Assembly (NCBI GenBank): GCA_005879585.1
Contig: VBKG01000312.1
Span: 4,400 to 68,399 of the forward strand
Length of the DNA: 64,000 bases
Reading direction: 5' to 3'
DNA from: Deltaproteobacteria bacterium
Lineage (GTDB): Bacteria > Desulfobacterota > Binatia > DP-6
Part shown: positions 3,519-63,591 of the stretch, in pieces
Numbering within the stretch: the first letter of the stretch is position 1
Layout: each line of letters opens with the position of its first letter
The notes under the pieces: generated by a model
Told to the model about the DNA's origin: nothing
What the model saw: the letters and a program-made list of their open reading frames with translations, nothing else
Databases searched by the model: none
Program-made: the position numbers and the translations under genes

Positions 3519-4700
3519 ATGAGGGGAACGGGACGCGTACTGATGGTGGCGGCGTGGGGCGCGCTCATCGCCTCTGCGGCGGCAGCCAGGACCCACCGGC
3601 CCGAGGCCACAACCGCCGCAACCCAGCCGGCCGCCTACCTCGTTCTCGACGCGGACAGCGGCACCGTGCTCGCCGAGCACGAGGCCCACCGCCGCTGGCC
3701 GCCGGCGTCCATGACCAAGATGATGACCGTCCTCATCGCCATGGAGCGCGTGCAGGACGGCTCGCTGTCGCTCGACACGCCGGTGCACACGTCGGCATGG
3801 GCGAGCCGCATCGGCGGCTCGCAGGTCTACCTCGCCGCGGGCGAGACCTTTCCGCTCGGCGAGATGCTGAAGGCGATCATGATCGCCTCCGCCAACGACG
3901 CCGCCGTCGCCGTGGCCGAGCACATCGCGGGATCGTCGGCCGCCTTCGTCGAGCTGATGAACGCGCGCGCGAAGGCCCTCGGTCTCGCGGACACGACGTA
4001 CCAGAGCCCGCACGGTCTGCCGCCGGGCAAGGGACAGACGGCCGACATCACGAGCGCGCACGACCTGGCGGTGCTCGGGCGCGAGCTCATGAAGTTCCCG
4101 GAGGTGATGCGCTGGGCGGGGATGCCGGCCGCGGGGTTCCGGAACGACACCTTGCAGATGTCGAACACGAACCACCTGGTCCGCACCTATCCGGGCGCGA
4201 CGGGCCTCAAGACGGGCTACTATCAGGAAGCCGGCTTCGAGGTGACCGCGACCGCGACACGCAACGACCTGCGGCTCATCGCCGTCGTCCTCGGCGTCGT
4301 CACCAAGCCGGGGTGTTTTGCAGAAGCGGCCCGCCTGATGAACGACGCGTTCGCCAACTATCGGGTGATTGCTGCGGCGCATCGTGCGGCGGTCGTGAGC
4401 GAGGTACCGGTTGCCGGCGGCACCGACGACCGTGTGAAGGCGCTCGCGACCGGCGACCTCCTGCTGCTCGTGAAGCGGGCCGAGGACCGCGGAATCGTCG
4501 TCGAAGCGCGCGTGCCGCGGCTGCTGCAGGCGCCGGTCAGTCGGAGTCAGCCACTCGGTGATGTGGTCGTGCGTCGCGGTGCCGAGGAGCTCGGCAAGGT
4601 CACGGTCGTCGCCGATCGGGACGTCGAGGCGACCGGCTGGCTCTCGTGGCTCTGGAACCGAGCGTTGTCGGGGCGGACGGCTCGCAGCGCGGCGCGCTGA
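3519..4700 (+). CDS. Serine-type D-Ala-D-Ala carboxypeptidase (PBP5/6 family)
   Basis: Signal peptide; SxxK (SMTK), SxN (SAN) and KTG motifs. Confidence 0.9.
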   Translation: MRGTGRVLMVAAWGALIASAAAARTHRPEATTAATQPAAYLVLDADSGTVLAEHEAHRRWPPASMTKMMTVLIAMERVQDGSLSLDTPVHTSAWASRIGGSQVYLAAGETFPLGEMLKAIMIASANDAAVAVAEHIAGSSAAFVELMNARAKALGLADTTYQSPHGLPPGKGQTADITSAHDLAVLGRELMKFPEVMRWAGMPAAGFRNDTLQMSNTNHLVRTYPGATGLKTGYYQEAGFEVTATATRNDLRLIAVVLGVVTKPGCFAEAARLMNDAFANYRVIAAAHRAAVVSEVPVAGGTDDRVKALATGDLLLLVKRAEDRGIVVEARVPRLLQAPVSRSQPLGDVVVRRGAEELGKVTVVADRDVEATGWLSWLWNRALSGRTARSAAR

Positions 4701-56731: not shown

Positions 56732-56890
56732 GTAAACTCCTCGGGGGCCCGTGCGGTGCTCGCGCGCTTCGCGCGCTGCGCTCCTCCGATGCCCCCGAAC
56801 CCCGTCGGCCAGGATGGCAGCTCTCGCTGCCGGCCTCGCGTGGCCAGGGCGAACTTCCGCTGTCGCCGCGGTCCCGCTAAGCTCCGCGGG

Positions 56891-59263
56891 ATGGTGACGT
56901 CGCGCCGCCTGCGCCGGGCCGCCCACGCGCTCGTCGTCCTCGGCGTCTGTGCGCTCGTGGCCGCCGGCTGCCGGCGCCAGCCGCTGCCGGCGGCAAAGCC
57001 CGCCCTCCCTCGCGTGGGCGACGCGGTCGACCGCGTGCACGTCCTCATGGTGAACGGCGGCGGGAGCAAGGCGATGAACTACCAGTCGCACCTGCTCCAC
57101 GTGCAGCAGCTCCTCGACGTGCTGCGCCATGCGGGCATCCGGCCTGACCAGGTGTCGGTCTTCAGCGGCGACGGCGCCGACCCGGCCGAGGATCTCGCGG
57201 TGCGCGAGGTCCAGCCCGAGGCGGAGTTCTGGCTGCTGCGCGGCACACGGCTCGAGCACCAGCTGGCCACGCCGATCACCTACGCCAACTCCTCGGTCCC
57301 CGGCGTCGAGCTGCAGGCGGCCACCAAGGAGAACCTGCGGCGCTGGTTCAAGCGCGCGCACCGTGCGCTCGGCCGCCGCGACACCCTCCTCCTCTACGTG
57401 ACCGACCACGGCCAGAAGAACGCGGAAGACTCGCTCAACAACTCGATCACGCTCTGGGGACCCAAGGAATCGCTTTCAGTGAGCGAGCTGCGCGAGCTCC
57501 TCCGGATGCTGCGCCCCGGGGTCCGCGTCGTCATGCTGATGTCGCAGTGCTACTCGGGAGCGTTCGCACATCTCGTCGCGGTCGAGCCCGACGCGCCGCC
57601 GACCGGCAACCTCTGCGGCTACTTCTCCTCCACCGCCGATCGCCCGGCCTACGGGTGCTATCCGGAGAACCGCGGCAAGGAGAACGTCGGCCACTCGTTC
57701 CACTTCATCCAGGCGCTCGCGATCGCACGCCGCTTCCCCGACGCCCACCTGCAGGTGCTCGTCAGCGACGCCACGCCCGACGTGCCGCTGCGGACCTCCG
57801 ACGTCTACCTCGAGGATCTGCTGCGGCGGAAGGCGGCGGCCGGCGGCGAGGACCTCACCCCGATGGTCGACGGACTCCTGCGCGAGGCGTGGCGGGACAA
57901 GGCGGCGTGGGAGCCCGAGATCCGCCTCCTCGACCGCATCGGACACGCCTTCGGCTGCTTCAGCCCTCGCTCGCTCGCCGAGCTCGACGCCCTCCAGGTG
58001 GGCGACATCACCGACAAGCTGAAGACGTACAAGAGCGCCTGGGAGTCGAGCCTCAAGAGCCTCGCGGGCGAGAACCTCGACCGCTTCGTCGCGTCCAGTC
58101 CGGGCTGGAAGGAGCGAACCGCGCCCGAGCACATCCTCGCGCTCGACGCCGGCGGCACGCGGGCGCTGGCGCGCGCGCTGCTGGTCGACCTCTCCGCGTA
58201 CACCGACGGCGACGTGCCGACGGCGCGGCGGCTCGGCGTCCTCCGGAAGAAGAGCCAGGTGGCGGAATCGGCGTCGTATCGCATGGAGGTCCGCCTGGGC
58301 GTCGTGCTGCGGATGCGCGCGATCCTCACCGCCGTCGCGGGGCGCGTGTACCTGGCGTCGCGCGGGACGCCGGAGGAGCGCGCGGCCTACGAGGCGCTGC
58401 TGCGCTGCGAGGCGCTCGCCCTGCCACCCGCCGACACGCCGCTGCCGGAGTCGACGACCACCGTCGCCGAGCCGTTTCCTCCCTACGAGGACGACGTCCG
58501 GCTCGCCGCGAAGGTGCTGCCCGCCTGGATGGGGATCCGCTTCAAGCAGGCGGAGCAGGAGGCCCGGGACAAGCACCACCTCGAGGCCGGCGCGAGCGTC
58601 GTCGAATCGGTCTATCCGGATTCGCCCGCGGAGGCCGCCGGCGTGCAGGCGGGCGACGTCATCCTCGGCCCGCCGGGCGCGCCGTTCAAGGAGAACCAGC
58701 AGATCCGCGAGTGGACCATGCTGTCCAAGATCGACGAGCCGAAGCCGCTCGTCGTCCTGCGCGGCGATCACGAGGTGCGGCTGACGCTCGCGCCGAAGGC
58801 CTACCCGCTCCAGTGGACGACGGTGGCGGGCCCGCCGAAGGTGGACGCACCGGCGCCCGCCGTCACGCTGACCGCGTACCGCGGCAGCGTGCCGCCCGCG
58901 CTCTCCGACGGCACGTCGCACCTGCTGTTCTTCTGGGCGACGTACTGCGGCCCGTGCAAGGCATCGCTGCCCGAGGTGCTCGCCTTCGAGCGCGAGCGCC
59001 ACACGCAGGTCATCGCCGTGACGGACGAGCTCCGCGAGCAGCTCGATACCTTCTTCAAGAAGTTCGACGCACCCTTCCCCGAGACGGTTGCGATGGACGA
59101 GTACCGCAAGGCCTTCCTCGCCTACGGCGTGAGCGGGACGCCGACCTTCGTGCTGCTCGACGGCACCGGCAAGGTGCGGAGCTACGCGACGGGCTATTCC
59201 GCGGACAAGGGGCTCGGCATCGCGGGGTGGTCGTGGACGAAGCCTGCCCCGGCGGGCGGGTGA
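56891..59263 (+). CDS. Lipoprotein: clan-CD cysteine peptidase-like (legumain C13 / caspase-like His-Cys dyad) + PDZ + TlpA-like thioredoxin (CGPC)
   Basis: Lipobox VAAGC; YVTDHG and MSQCYSGAF dyad context; PDZ GVQAGDVILG; WATYCGPCKASLPEV redoxin motif. Confidence 0.8.
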   Translation: MVTSRRLRRAAHALVVLGVCALVAAGCRRQPLPAAKPALPRVGDAVDRVHVLMVNGGGSKAMNYQSHLLHVQQLLDVLRHAGIRPDQVSVFSGDGADPAEDLAVREVQPEAEFWLLRGTRLEHQLATPITYANSSVPGVELQAATKENLRRWFKRAHRALGRRDTLLLYVTDHGQKNAEDSLNNSITLWGPKESLSVSELRELLRMLRPGVRVVMLMSQCYSGAFAHLVAVEPDAPPTGNLCGYFSSTADRPAYGCYPENRGKENVGHSFHFIQALAIARRFPDAHLQVLVSDATPDVPLRTSDVYLEDLLRRKAAAGGEDLTPMVDGLLREAWRDKAAWEPEIRLLDRIGHAFGCFSPRSLAELDALQVGDITDKLKTYKSAWESSLKSLAGENLDRFVASSPGWKERTAPEHILALDAGGTRALARALLVDLSAYTDGDVPTARRLGVLRKKSQVAESASYRMEVRLGVVLRMRAILTAVAGRVYLASRGTPEERAAYEALLRCEALALPPADTPLPESTTTVAEPFPPYEDDVRLAAKVLPAWMGIRFKQAEQEARDKHHLEAGASVVESVYPDSPAEAAGVQAGDVILGPPGAPFKENQQIREWTMLSKIDEPKPLVVLRGDHEVRLTLAPKAYPLQWTTVAGPPKVDAPAPAVTLTAYRGSVPPALSDGTSHLLFFWATYCGPCKASLPEVLAFERERHTQVIAVTDELREQLDTFFKKFDAPFPETVAMDEYRKAFLAYGVSGTPTFVLLDGTGKVRSYATGYSADKGLGIAGWSWTKPAPAGG

Positions 59264-59271
59264 GCAGGGGC

Positions 59272-59310
59272 TTGACTCTGTATCACAATGTAGTTAGTGC
59301 GTATCACGCG
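59272..59310 (+). promoter_or_regulatory. Promoter/operator of the RHH regulator gene: TTGACT followed by GTATCACAATGTA and GTATCACGCG
   Basis: -35-like hexamer and two GTATCAC half-sites ending 1 nt before ATG 59311. Confidence 0.4.
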
Positions 59311-59748
59311 ATGGCGAGGCGCCCGGCCGATCTGCCCGACGAAGACGAGCCGAAGGACCGGGTCCTTCACACCCGCATCCCCGAGTCGCTCGAGGATGCG
59401 ATCAAGAGCAAGGCGCGTCGTCTGCGCATCCCGGTCTCGAACCTCGTGCGGAACGTGCTCGAGCAGACGTTCCAGCTCGTCGAAGACGTGGTCGGCGACG
59501 GCCTCGAGATCGCCAGCACAGCCAGACGGGGCGCGGCGCGCGTGCGCCAGGCGGCGACCGGCGTCGGCAGCCAGGCTGCCGGCATCTACGGCTGGCAGGA
59601 GCTGATACTGAACCGCGACGAGCGATGCGGGCATTGCGGTGTGGAGCTCGATCGTGGGGCTCGTGCGTGTCGCAGCCTCTCGGACCGGCCGGACGCGGCG
59701 CCCGTGTTTCTGTGCCCGGTGTGCGTCGCGGAGGTCGGCAAGGGCTGA
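59311..59748 (+). CDS. Ribbon-helix-helix (CopG/Arc-like) DNA-binding protein with C-terminal zinc ribbon
   Basis: HTRIPESLEDAIKSKARRLRIPVSNLVRNVLEQ RHH signature; CGHCG..CPVC; 145 aa. Confidence 0.7.
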   Translation: MARRPADLPDEDEPKDRVLHTRIPESLEDAIKSKARRLRIPVSNLVRNVLEQTFQLVEDVVGDGLEIASTARRGAARVRQAATGVGSQAAGIYGWQELILNRDERCGHCGVELDRGARACRSLSDRPDAAPVFLCPVCVAEVGKG

Positions 59749-59765
59749 ATTTTTTTCGCCGTCGC

Positions 59766-59778
59766 GTATCACAAAGTA
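59766..59778 (+). promoter_or_regulatory. Second copy of the GTATCACAAWGTA operator motif, upstream of the small gene at 59814
   Basis: GTATCACAAAGTA versus GTATCACAATGTA at 59280-59292 (12 of 13 identical). Confidence 0.35.
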
Positions 59779-59813
59779 CCACAACGGGCGGCTGAGACCG
59801 CCAAGGAGGCCAC

Positions 59814-60017
59814 ATGGACCGGAGGATCGAAGACATGACCCGGACGGGTACGGAGCTCGCCGCCGACTACGTGGGCGACGTCCTCAACGCGGCCAACAAG
59901 CTGATGGACACGCTCATGCGCAACGTCGAGAAGCTCACCCGCGGCGTCATCGAAGACGCCGGGAAGGTGGCCGCCGCAGCGTGCGACGCATTCTCGACGT
60001 CGCGCGATGCTCGCTAG
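59814..60017 (+). CDS. Small hypothetical protein
   Basis: 67 aa; strong RBS AAGGAGG 7 nt upstream; its stop overlaps the hydrolase start. Confidence 0.5.
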   Translation: MDRRIEDMTRTGTELAADYVGDVLNAANKLMDTLMRNVEKLTRGVIEDAGKVAAAACDAFSTSRDAR

Positions 60018-60930
60018 CAGCGACCTCCGACCGGCGACGGAGCTCCACTCCGTGACCCTGCACGGCCATCGGGTGGGGCTCCGTCTCGCCGGTCACGGGC
60101 CCGTCCTGCTGCTCGTTCACGGGATGGCGAGCAACTCGGAGGCATGGACGCGGGTCAGCTCGCTGCTCGCCGGCGGGTTCGCGATCGTCGCGCCGGACCT
60201 CCTCGGCCACGGGCAGACGGCGCAGCCGGCGGGTGACTATTCGCTGGGCGCGCACGCGACGCTCCTCCGGGATGTTCTCGTCGTCCTCGGGCACGAGCGC
60301 GCCACGGTCGTCGGACACTCGTTCGGCGGCGGCGTGGCCATGCAGTTCGCCTACCAGTTCCCGGAGCTCTGCGAGCGCCTCGTGCTGGTTGGGAGCGGCG
60401 GTCTCGGGCGGGAGGTGAACCTGCTGCTGCGGGCCCTCGCCCTTCCCGGCGCGGAGCACGTGCTCCGGCTCTTCTGTCGCGCGTCGGTGACCGAGGCGGG
60501 CCGCACCGTCGTCGAGTGGGCTCGGCGTGTCGGCTTCGGCCCGACTCCCGCCGCCGAGGAGATCGGCCGCGGCTACAACGCGCTGACCGATCCGTACGGC
60601 CGGACGGCTTTTTTTCGGACGCTCCGTGCCGTGATCGGCGTCGGCGGCCAGAGCATCAGCGCCAACGACCGGTTGCCGCTCGCCGCCGATCTCCCCACCC
60701 TCATCATCTGGGGCGCTCGCGACCCGATCATCCCGGTGCAGCATGCGCAGCGAGCGCATGACGCGATCGCGGGCAGCCGCCTCGAGATCTTCGACGGGGT
60801 CGGCCACTTCCCGCAGTGCGAGGCCCCGGAACGGTTCGCGCGGACGGTCTCGGACTTCGTCGTTTCGACGGAGCCGGCACGTCTGTCGCAGGAGCGCCTC
60901 CGCATGCGCCTGCAGGCCGGCGGACTGTAA
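60007..60930 (+). CDS. Alpha/beta-fold hydrolase
   Basis: Nucleophile elbow GHSFGG, LLLVHGMASNSEAW, C-terminal His region. Confidence 0.85.
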   Translation: MLASSDLRPATELHSVTLHGHRVGLRLAGHGPVLLLVHGMASNSEAWTRVSSLLAGGFAIVAPDLLGHGQTAQPAGDYSLGAHATLLRDVLVVLGHERATVVGHSFGGGVAMQFAYQFPELCERLVLVGSGGLGREVNLLLRALALPGAEHVLRLFCRASVTEAGRTVVEWARRVGFGPTPAAEEIGRGYNALTDPYGRTAFFRTLRAVIGVGGQSISANDRLPLAADLPTLIIWGARDPIIPVQHAQRAHDAIAGSRLEIFDGVGHFPQCEAPERFARTVSDFVVSTEPARLSQERLRMRLQAGGL

Positions 60931-60984
60931 GCGCCTGGACACTCCGGGGGCCCGCCCGCTATCTGCCGTGCGGGAGGGATGCCC

Positions 60985-62202
60985 ATGGCCGACGTCACCT
61001 GGGACTTCACCGGCAAGGTCGCGCTCGCGAGCGGCGGCGCATCGGGGATCGGCCGTGCGGCAGCGACGGCGTGGCTCGCGGCCGGAGCGCGGGTCGCGAT
61101 CCTCGACCAGAGCGCCGAGCGCCTCGAGGAGACGACAGGAGCCCTCGGCGCAGATCGGCTGCTCGCAATCTCCGGCGACGTCAGCGAGCCGGCCGACTGC
61201 GACCGCGCCATCGACGAGACGGTCCGGCGCTTCGGTCGCCTCGACGTCGTGCTCAACGCGGCGGGCATCGGCGGCATCGGGCGCGTGTGGGAGCTCGATC
61301 CGCTCATCTGGGACCGCGTGCTCGCCGTCAACCTGCGCGGCACGTTCCTCCTGACCCGCGCCGCGACGCGCTGGATGGTCGAGCACGAGCGGCCCGGGCG
61401 CGTCATCAACATCGCGTCGACCAACGCGACCGTGCCGACCACGGGGCACTCCCCGTACTGTGCGTCGAAGGCGGGCGTCGTCGCGCTGACGCAGGTCGCC
61501 GCGCTCGAGCTGGCCCCCCGTCAGGTGACCGTCAATGCGATCGCGCCGGGGCCGGTCGACACGAACCTCACCGCGCCGCTGTTCGCGATGGCCGGAGCGC
61601 GCGAAGAGTTCCTCCGCCACATCCCCCTCGGCCGGGTCGGCCGTGCCGAGGACATCGCGCAGATGATCCTCTTCCTCGCTTCGGACGCGGCGGAGTGGGT
61701 GACCGGACAGTGCTTCTACGTCGAGCAAAAAATGGTGAGGCGTCCGTTTGTCCGTTGCCCGGACGCTTGCCGGGGCTGCAGAGTCGTCGCCACCCGAAGG
61801 GGAGGAGGTCGACATGGCGGCGCGCAGACTCGAGACGATGGTTGCGCTCCTGATCCTGGTCACCGGCATGACGCGACCGGTCGCCGCGGCCCCGCGGCCG
61901 AACGTCGTGTTCATCCTGACCGACGACCAGCGGTGGGACACGATCGACAAGAAGCACTCGGTCGACGGCATCACTCCCGTCATGCCGAAGGTGCAGAGCC
62001 TGCTCGTGAGAAGGAACTCTACAACCTCGACCGCGACGCGTTCGAGCTCACCAACGTCGCCGGCAACTCGGCGAACGCCGGGCTGATCGCTCTCATGGCC
62101 GCCCGGCTGCGCGAGCTCGACCCGGGCTGGACCGGGAGCGCCCCATCGGCGCCGGCGTCCGCGGCGCCACCCGACTACGCCAACGACGACGCGTTCGAGT
62201 GA
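60985..62202 (+). CDS. SDR-family oxidoreductase with a non-native 3' extension (reads through into a sulfatase remnant)
   Basis: TGKVALASGGASGIG cofactor site, YxxxK (YCASK); SDR domain complete by about 61737, then an A6 run (61727-61732) and about 150 extra codons. Confidence 0.75.
   Translation: MADVTWDFTGKVALASGGASGIGRAAATAWLAAGARVAILDQSAERLEETTGALGADRLLAISGDVSEPADCDRAIDETVRRFGRLDVVLNAAGIGGIGRVWELDPLIWDRVLAVNLRGTFLLTRAATRWMVEHERPGRVINIASTNATVPTTGHSPYCASKAGVVALTQVAALELAPRQVTVNAIAPGPVDTNLTAPLFAMAGAREEFLRHIPLGRVGRAEDIAQMILFLASDAAEWVTGQCFYVEQKMVRRPFVRCPDACRGCRVVATRRGGGRHGGAQTRDDGCAPDPGHRHDATGRRGPAAERRVHPDRRPAVGHDRQEALGRRHHSRHAEGAEPAREKELYNLDRDAFELTNVAGNSANAGLIALMAARLRELDPGWTGSAPSAPASAAPPDYANDDAFE
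61814..62202 (+). pseudogene. Sulfatase remnant (N-terminal about 60 aa joined out of frame to the C-terminal tail; catalytic core deleted)
   Basis: RBS GGAGGAGG; MAARRLETM..PNVVFILTDDQRWDT sulfatase N-terminus in one frame; ELYNLDRDAFELTNVAG..LRELD sulfatase C-terminus in another. Confidence 0.6.
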
Positions 62203-62205
62203 CCG

Positions 62206-63591
<1,386 letters not shown>

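Follow-up and report, generated by a model that had tools for sequence, protein, structure and literature searches.

What does the ribbon-helix-helix (RHH) protein encoded near one end of a 64-kb stretch of Binatia DNA control, and through which DNA site does it act? The stretch (the window, 64,000 nucleotides, positions 4,400 to 68,399 of contig VBKG01000312.1 in assembly GCA_005879585.1, G+C ~70%) carries at 59272-62202 the gene of a 145-aa protein, followed by genes for a 67-aa protein, an alpha/beta-hydrolase and a short-chain dehydrogenase/reductase (SDR). A sequence-only reading of this region had described the 145-aa protein as a CopG/Arc-type RHH regulator with a C-terminal CxxC..CxxC ribbon, acting on a 13-nt motif repeated before its own gene and before the next one. 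The positions that it gave for the motifs, open reading frames, ribosome-binding site and gene overlap were all read from the sequence as described. The analysis reported here suggests that the 145-aa protein is probably a negative autoregulator, an RHH repressor that would also control the small-protein and hydrolase genes downstream. The features of the regulator gene and its putative promoter (P1) are the following:

59272..59277, + strand: TTGACT, the -35-like hexamer of P1, read directly
59280..59296, + strand: core of the putative operator O1, GTATCAC-AAT-GTAGTTA, with a canonical left subsite and a right subsite that is a clade-specific degenerate form of GTGATAC
59280-59292, + strand: the 13-mer GTATCACAATGTA, read directly
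59301..59307 (the following GCG runs to 59310), + strand: third subsite GTATCAC, a direct repeat that ends 3 nt before the ATG
59311..59748, + strand: gene of the 145-aa protein with RHH, long helix and Cys4 zinc domain, from ATG 59311 to TGA 59746-59748

The region was compared across 106 loci from Binatia and related metagenome assemblies (15 from reference genomes, 80 from metagenomes and 11 found by exact-protein look-up), with ±10 kb of sequence covered per locus. Regulators with 67-100% identity to the window protein were placed in clade A, which supplied 30 non-redundant promoters and 27 non-redundant regions around the second operator (O2), and those with ~45-55% identity formed the sister clade B, which supplied 54 non-redundant promoters. 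The operator occupied the same promoter position in every homologue of both clades with enough upstream sequence. The O1 columns of clade A were 90-100% conserved across the 30 non-redundant loci, and conservation upstream of the -35 hexamer was ~35-45%, which is the random level. A TTGAC hexamer was located 2-3 nt upstream of the operator in 28/30 non-redundant clade-A loci and 1-2 nt upstream in 38/54 clade-B loci, and its columns were 70-90% conserved compared with ~40% in the flanks. The clade-A consensus was GGGGcTTGACTnT-GTATCAC-AAT-GTAGTTA-gnC-GTAtCaC-GcgATG. The genes 5' of the module were unrelated between loci, indicating that the operator belongs to the RHH gene and not to a neighbour. 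The form of the operator followed the protein clade, with a right half GTAGTTA accompanied by V18 in clade A and a right half GTGATAC accompanied by W18 in clade B. These sequence features are conserved and occur together in more than 80 non-redundant loci. The motif thus behaves as expected of an operator that travels with its gene, since it follows TTGAC upstream of the homologues and recurs before the small-protein gene of clade A.

A search of the window for the 13-mer, allowing 2 mismatches, found 2 sites against 0.07 expected in 64 kb; both were the sites already reported, and 0/100 shuffled sequences gave 2 or more matches. A chance origin of the motif is therefore excluded in the window, and across the loci the motif is positioned at promoters. 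The bare heptamer GTATCAC occurred 4 times against 1.6 expected, which was non-significant. In our judgement the decisive evidence for the motif is comparative, namely that its position is kept across related loci while the flanking sequence is random. No relevant description of an RHH plus zinc-ribbon regulator, or of a GTATCAC-type motif, was found in the literature.

Alignment of the promoters changed the boundaries of the motif. The 13-nt motif is real and conserved; it covers the left subsite and a 3-bp spacer and ends three bases into the right subsite, and on the aligned sequences the true operator unit is 7-N3-7, 17-19 bp in length, rather than the 13-mer. The subsite is a 7-bp (T)GTATCAC, and because the subsites are spaced at 10-11 bp they would all lie on one face of the DNA. 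The full O1 extends over 59280-59307 and comprises three subsites. The GTATCAC at 59301, which the earlier reading had called a third half-site, turned out to be a conserved third subsite in direct orientation, beginning 21 bp (two turns) after the first. This position reads GTATCAC, GTAGCAC or GTAACAC in most clade-A loci; in a few the third subsite is missing and the start codon stands 10 nt after O1. The subsite layout (7 bp, 10-11 bp spacing, direct and inverted orientations) is compatible with the binding mode of RHH dimers.

The sister clade displayed the symmetry of the operator most clearly. The perfect palindrome GTATCAC-N3-GTGATAC (17 bp) was present in 54/54 non-redundant clade-B promoters, and a flanking T and A lengthen it to 19 bp. 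The reading frame had its first ATG or GTG 9-12 nt past the palindrome in 51/56 non-redundant loci (L004-L015, L055-L105); ATG and GTG starts were about equal in number, and no Shine-Dalgarno sequence preceded them. A putative -10 hexamer, TACAnn, is made up of the last three bases of the palindrome and the next three; it comes 16 nt past TTGAC, with a TG before it. The start codon would then fall 6-9 nt past the -10 hexamer, which is a signature of leaderless mRNA, and the clade-B RHH genes are probably leaderless. The short distance of 9-12 nt from operator to start, together with the missing Shine-Dalgarno sequence, places the operator on the -10/+1 region of such a gene. The regulator gene of the window also has no Shine-Dalgarno sequence, and its mRNA is probably leaderless or nearly so. 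Clade-A loci without the third subsite would share the leaderless geometry of clade B, and those with it, including the window, would have a leader of 3-5 nt.

Public gene calls of 162 or 153 aa for several family members begin upstream and translate the operator, giving the N-termini 'LYHNVV', 'MYHNVV', 'TYHDVIH' and 'MYHDVIH' (window 59260-59310; P0001, P0048, P0114 and P0161). These extended N-termini are probably annotation errors.

The N-terminal part of the 145-aa protein has a predicted RHH-like fold, and the CopG/Arc-type assignment of the earlier reading is accepted here. The family alignment showed an invariant LH.R block in the predicted strand (R17-I23, RVLHTRI), an invariant PVS..RN.LE block opening the second helix, a YGW.E..LN block, and an invariant C-terminal block C106-x2-C109 ... 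F-L-C135-x2-C138. The C-terminal CxxC..CxxC proposed earlier was likewise upheld, as C135 and C138 do not vary and conservation of C106 and C109 is at least 90%. The AlphaFold2 model contains a helix at residues 25-38, a long helix at 42-84 and a beta-rich C-terminal domain, in which the four conserved ligands form two CxxC knuckles on beta-hairpins, as in zinc ribbons and zinc fingers; the confidence for this domain was 64-81. We accept the regulator as an RHH protein with a predicted Cys4 zinc domain, belonging to an uncharacterised family. Among 30 family members, 13 matched the Pfam family CopG_antitoxin at E<0.01, and a weak RHH_3 match and a faint zinc-ribbon match were also obtained. 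No family match was found in NCBIfam, PADLOC or PHROGs, and the family profile, searched against PDB sequences, retrieved chance matches only (histone H4 and LIM domains, E>0.1). All 239 close homologues are unnamed and come from 'Candidatus Binatia' or 'Deltaproteobacteria' metagenome bins. An exhaustive profile search returned 715 clusters (at 50% identity) with E<=1e-3, 492 of them with E<=1e-10, and reached Methylomirabilis and Polyangiaceae; one member is called 'BrnA antitoxin family protein' by NCBI. The distant member P0162 (L106 2980-3050, from a low-GC organism) has TTGACA-N18-TATGAT upstream and no GTATCAC site, indicating that the GTATCAC operator is specific to the Binatia-type clades and does not extend to the whole family of ~715 clusters.

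The second copy of the motif lies between the regulator gene and the small-protein gene, where the following features were identified:

59750..59756, + strand: run of seven T (T7) directly after the regulator stop codon, present as T6-9 in 27/27 non-redundant clade-A loci
59766-59778, + strand: the 13-mer GTATCACAAAGTA, read directly
59766..59782, + strand: putative operator O2, GTATCAC-AAA-GTACCAC, two subsites in inverted orientation
59787..59802, + strand: stem-loop GGCGG-CTGAGA-CCGCC, directly adjoining the ribosome-binding site in the 5' untranslated region (5' UTR) of the small-protein mRNA
59803..59809, + strand: AAGGAGG, Shine-Dalgarno sequence of the small-protein gene, read directly, its GGAG core conserved in the alignment

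The O2 pattern GT(A/G)TCAC-N3-GTAnnnC was conserved in 27/27 non-redundant clade-A loci, and outside the window its right half reads GTAATAC, GTAGTGC or GTGCTAC. In all 27 the T-run begins 0-6 nt past the stop codon and is followed by 9-10 nt and then by O2. This fixed spacing makes a promoter (P2) at O2 plausible. In the proposed geometry the end of the T-run would supply TTGnnn, the left subsite would lie within a 17-nt spacer, and TAnnnC would lie inside the right subsite. The T7 run may belong to P2, contributing an UP-like tract and the TTG of its -35 hexamer, or it may form a weak terminator tail; it may also serve in both ways. Locus L003 carries a consensus TTGACA exactly 2 nt before O2, as at P1. 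In L020 the small-protein gene is missing and O2 stands directly before the hydrolase gene.

A stem-loop begins ~5 nt after O2 in ~22/27 clade-A loci. Its stems vary by locus (GCGGC/GCCGC, GGCGACGC/GCGTCGCC, TCGGCC/GGCCGA and CTCCGGC/GCCGGAG). The 5' UTR element at 59783-59802, also found in L002, L023, L025 and L031-L054, usually consists of CAACGTG and then the stem-loop, with apparent compensatory changes, and in many loci another stem, CCCCCG...CGGGG, precedes the ribosome-binding site. The folding z-score of the stem-loop averaged only -0.9, and its position is more persuasive than its energy. An Rfam search of 59000-62600 returned sub-threshold miRNA noise and no match for the stem-loop.

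Three genes follow O2:

59814..60017, + strand: acidic 67-aa protein (pI 4.9), predicted to form a single long amphipathic helix
60007..60930, + strand: 307-aa alpha/beta-hydrolase whose nucleophile elbow reads GHSFG; the start of its gene overlaps the stop of the small gene by 11 nt
60985..61724, + strand: SDR-family oxidoreductase, collinear with its relatives to 61724 only, in an open reading frame that reads on to 62202

A small protein of 64-72 aa follows the RHH gene in 23-24/25 informative clade-A loci. AlphaFold2 predicted a helix over residues 3-66 of the 67-aa protein (pLDDT, predicted local distance difference test, 92), and the hydrophobic moment is maximal at 100 degrees. A search of 5.8 billion proteins returned 39 homologues, all on contigs with a clade-A RHH gene. 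The hidden Markov model search that the earlier reading had recommended for this protein identified no family in Pfam, NCBIfam, PADLOC or PHROGs. The suggestion that the protein is a shortened form of the clade-B partner protein (described below), or a relative of the regulator helix, was rejected at hhalign probabilities of 0.8% and 5.9%, respectively.

Orthologues of the hydrolase (54-87% identity) follow the module in ~18/24 clade-A loci, where the identity is 59-87%, and in one clade-B lineage (L010/L092), usually 0-15 nt behind the small-protein gene or overlapping it. The loci without it have an unrelated next gene (SelO, a Rieske oxygenase or a convergent gene). Of the small-protein/hydrolase/SDR operon put forward earlier, the small protein and the hydrolase are conserved; the SDR is linked to the module in close relatives only (WIN-type, L031, L034, L036 and L053), has lost its normal 3' end in the window, and is outside the conserved unit.

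Taken as a repressor, the protein most likely works as follows. RHH dimers would insert their paired beta-strands into successive major grooves at the (T)GTATCAC subsites, with V/W18, H20 and R22 as the DNA-facing strand residues, among which H20 and R22 are invariant. The long helix, the zinc domain or both would tie neighbouring dimers together. As O1 takes up the stretch from the -35 hexamer to the start codon (spacer, -10 and +1), its occupation would exclude RNA polymerase and produce negative autoregulation. The same protein bound at O2 would repress a second promoter or block read-through, and this control would cover the small protein, the hydrolase and, in the window, the SDR. DNA binding, the oligomeric state and stoichiometry, the transcript starts, the promoter positions and repression in preference to activation are what we infer from the sequence in this scheme. 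The inducing signal might come from the small helical protein in the role of a partner, from the state of the Cys4 site or from a hydrolase-linked metabolite.

Several results weigh against this scheme. A generic consensus scan of 59100-62300 found no sigma-70-type promoter under its criteria, the putative -10 hexamers are poor (TAGTGC at P1 and TACCAC at P2), and P2 has a weak -35 hexamer, TTCGCC, in the window. Instead of a promoter element, the T-run might be the tail of a terminator. No credible further operator copy was found in the 64-kb window, either with the 13-mer at up to 2 mismatches or with the palindrome at up to 3, so that the window gives no information on a wider regulon. For the protein itself, the CopG_antitoxin match to residues 13-52 (E 1.8e-4, 22.7 bits) is below the 28-bit gathering cut-off, the AlphaFold2 confidence is only moderate (pLDDT 70) in a monomer model without the N-terminal strand, and Foldseek with this model gave no significant match.

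The earlier reading had also called the module possibly antitoxin-like. In a type II toxin-antitoxin (TA) system the RHH protein would be the antitoxin and the 67-aa protein or the 150-170 aa partner of clade B the toxin, and the pair would regulate its own expression through the palindrome. We consider this very improbable, as neither protein matched a toxin family in Pfam, NCBIfam, PADLOC or PHROGs, and the 67-aa protein is an acidic single helix. The tight two-gene coupling expected of such a system, with an ATGA overlap, was found in the sister clade only; in clade A the two genes do not form a single tight operon and are separated by 66-118 nt that contain the T-run, O2, the stem-loop and a Shine-Dalgarno sequence of their own. 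The second gene therefore has its own operator and 5' UTR, and in L020 O2 stands straight before the hydrolase gene with no 67-aa gene at all. The C-terminus of the regulator is a folded Cys4 domain and not a disordered toxin-binding tail, and the clade-B partner carries the same Cys4 domain, which makes it a paralogue rather than an enzyme-like toxin.

A more serious question is whether O2 is a promoter operator at all, since it could instead be a roadblock that modulates read-through from P1 into the small-protein and hydrolase genes, with T7 as the intrinsic terminator tail of the regulator transcript. The T-run directly past the stop codon in 27/27 loci fits such an arrangement. So does a stem formed in several loci by the FLC codons (TTCCTC) with the last codons (GGAG), which ends at the T-run with -15 to -20 kcal/mol, and a scan gave a weak terminator-like site at 59735-59748 plus the T-run. 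The P2 -35 hexamer is also poor in most loci. The hairpin before the T-run, however, is strong in some loci, weak or absent in many and inconsistent overall, with 5 pairs (3 GC) in the window, so that the intrinsic-terminator reading of the T-run was borne out in part. The fixed gap of 9-10 nt between T-run and O2 is needed by the promoter geometry and not by a terminator, L003 has TTGACA 2 nt before O2, and the stem-loop starts where a P2 transcript would begin. We regard a terminator plus roadblock as unlikely, yet as a live sub-alternative ranked below repression of a second promoter. It is also conceivable that the motif is read by another factor or is a mere promoter element, with the RHH protein binding elsewhere or not at all. 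The right half of the palindrome overlaps the likely -10 (TGnTAC), and promoter function could explain part of its conservation. Nevertheless, the left subsite GTATCAC is at least 90% invariant although it lies in the spacer, which is unconserved in sigma-70 promoters, and a two-fold symmetric repeat with one-turn spacing is typical of dimeric repressors. The site stands beside an RHH family gene in every locus despite unrelated neighbours, its form shifts with the protein clade, and the motif is otherwise missing from the 64 kb, so that action through another factor is scarcely to be expected. Autoregulation by the RHH protein with additional control at O2 is the reading retained here.

The gene that follows the RHH gene in clade B (L004-L015, L055-L105) encodes a partner protein of 147-172 aa, mostly with an ATGA start/stop overlap. 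The N-terminal part of the partner is helical (WEHVGRAAEHFARRVARDA...), its linker is rich in His, Arg and Cys, and a Cys4 domain forms its C-terminus; it gave no match in Pfam, NCBIfam, PADLOC or PHROGs. Its C-terminal domain is homologous to the zinc domain of the regulator (hhalign probability 96.6%, E 6e-10), the shared pattern being W..V.NR...C..C....G........F.C..C. That the regulator shares its zinc domain with a dedicated partner suggests that the domain may serve in interaction or sensing. Some partner N-termini are rich in His and Cys (MTTTHCGHDHE and MTTTDHHGCHG), which hints at metal binding. On this basis the Cys4 domain might be a new interaction or sensing module, through which the partner and the repressor form a repressor/anti-repressor (or co-repressor) feedback switch that is widespread in Binatia, Myxococcota and Methylomirabilota. 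In clade A the partner would have been replaced by the 67-aa helix protein under the second operator of the repressor, and the switch might respond to metal or redox state, or the PARP-like zinc finger might make extra DNA contacts. We regard such a switch as possible, on the doubtful side.

With regard to the downstream genes, the hydrolase has the alpha/beta-hydrolase fold and matched Pfam Abhydrolase_1 at E 6e-32. It remained under every NCBIfam equivalog cut-off, the best being an AcoC-like model with 129 of 307 bits. In the PDB it is related to generic lipases and to meta-cleavage-product hydrolases. An ELHS motif conserved at the N-terminus favours a start at or near 60007 over the 292-aa start chosen by gene callers. 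The SDR matched Pfam adh_short_C2 over residues 19-247 (E 2e-61). In the window, the last ~23 codons present in near-identical contigs are replaced, and the SDR may be impaired. Polyhydroxybutyrate mobilisation by a depolymerase and a 3-hydroxybutyrate dehydrogenase was rejected, as the NCBIfam scores of 80 of 300 and 175 of 258 bits, respectively, are far under the cut-offs. A storage-lipid link, suggested by a weak match to Pfam 'Senescence' (E 0.009), the lipase-like PDB matches, the amphipathic helix and a wax-ester synthase/diacylglycerol acyltransferase (WS/DGAT) gene in L003, was not recurrent and is kept as a weak lead only. The WS/DGAT gene lies at L003 5806-7200 (-), convergent to the small-protein gene, and recurs in just one other locus, at L014 371-1741, 3 kb upstream of the module.

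Collinearity of the window with near-identical metagenome contigs is broken over 61725-62007 (compare L016 4092-4583). In those contigs the SDR ends normally with ...GQCFYVDGGQSLVALPPYIDLVERLLGAT and the stop codon. In the window the SDR tail reads CAAAAAATGG..., and behind it stands the beginning of a sulfatase gene with ATG 61815, a signal peptide and PRPNVVFILTDDQRWDT. This 5' end is fused out of frame to a sulfatase 3' fragment at 62008-62202, so that the SDR open reading frame has 407 aa. This junction could be the result of gene decay, a strain-level rearrangement or an assembly join. A 130-nt partial copy of the hydrolase gene at 62273-62402, 90% identical to 60237-60367 around the GHSFGG elbow, sits between the sulfatase remnant and an inositol-1-phosphate synthase gene on the opposite strand. 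It is also present in contigs L016, L017 and L027 and is therefore a natural gene remnant. A predicted membrane protein of 61-63 aa (MNY...SPTYGWLTL...REYPDAA) follows the hydrolase in L020 (7417-7608) and L025 (6679-6864); it was not found in the window and had no Pfam match. Upstream of the module, the gene at 56756-59263 (+) encodes an 835-aa protein of unusual architecture, with a peptidase-C13 (legumain-like) domain, a PDZ domain and a C-terminal thioredoxin/redoxin-like domain, and is not linked to the RHH module in other lineages.

The analysis proposes a concrete, testable function for an unnamed family of ~715 clusters, which has no Pfam or NCBIfam model and whose members are labelled 'hypothetical' or, at best, 'BrnA antitoxin family'. 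The exact sequence of the candidate operator would provide a ready regulator-operator pair from Binatia, a phylum none of whose members is cultured or genetically tractable. Gene calls that now include the operator in the coding sequence are corrected, and the conserved hydrolase and the tiny helical protein are indicated as regulated cargo. The type of circuit is familiar, and the gain is in annotation and an experimental handle rather than a new principle; it would go beyond a familiar circuit if the zinc domain and the paralogous partner do form a sensing switch.

Among known proteins, the RHH antitoxins (BrnA/CopG_antitoxin PF12441, KacA/TacA, ParD and FitA) are nearest in sequence and structure. 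They differ from the regulator described here, which has no cognate toxin, a folded Cys4 C-terminus, a separately controlled second gene and metabolic hydrolase cargo. The C-terminal domain can be compared with PARP- and C1-type zinc fingers; its ligands are Cys4 and not CCHC, zf-PARP was not reported in Pfam at E<=1, and Foldseek gave E>=0.23 for this domain. Small zinc folds match one another easily.

The small RHH proteins Mnt and Arc of P22 occupy, as dimers of dimers, a short symmetric operator of ~17-21 bp that overlaps a promoter. Mnt joins two dimers through a C-terminal helical domain, a role that helix 42-84 and the zinc domain may fulfil here. No sequence relationship to Mnt or Arc was found; both lack a zinc domain and are phage-encoded, and their operator sequences are unrelated. 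NikR likewise combines an RHH domain with a C-terminal metal-binding, oligomerising domain and uses a palindromic operator at the regulated promoter. The half-site of E. coli NikR is GTATGA, which resembles GTATCA here. The C-terminal domain of NikR, however, is ACT-like and binds Ni through His/Cys, whereas a Cys4 zinc-finger-like fold is predicted here, and Pfam reported no NikR_C match in the regulator. The NikR half-sites are ~16 bp apart, compared with a 3-bp spacer here, and nothing connects the module with metal transport. Mnt/Arc and NikR are architectural analogues and not relatives.

The functionally closest system is the omega repressor of inc18 plasmids (pSM19035). By sequence the regulator is not a member of the omega family, as hhalign gave a probability of 0.4% with an omega sequence verified against inc18 plasmids. 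Omega has 71 aa and no zinc domain, is borne on Firmicutes plasmids and also acts as a centromere-binding protein. It uses 6-10 heptads that directly adjoin one another in a 7-bp register, whereas the subsites here are 10-11 bp apart and present in 2-3 copies. Omega R31 is a base-contacting arginine, and the invariant R22 lies opposite it in the best hhalign alignment, which is non-significant. The likeness lies in the way the sites are used. Omega, an RHH repressor, binds 7-bp (T/A)ATCAC(T/A) subsites at its own promoter and at further ones, and these subsites may be direct or inverted (PMC4627068). The subsite here, TATCACA/G, has the same ATCAC core, and both arrangements are present, direct in O1 (subsites 1 and 3) and inverted in O2 and in the clade-B palindrome.

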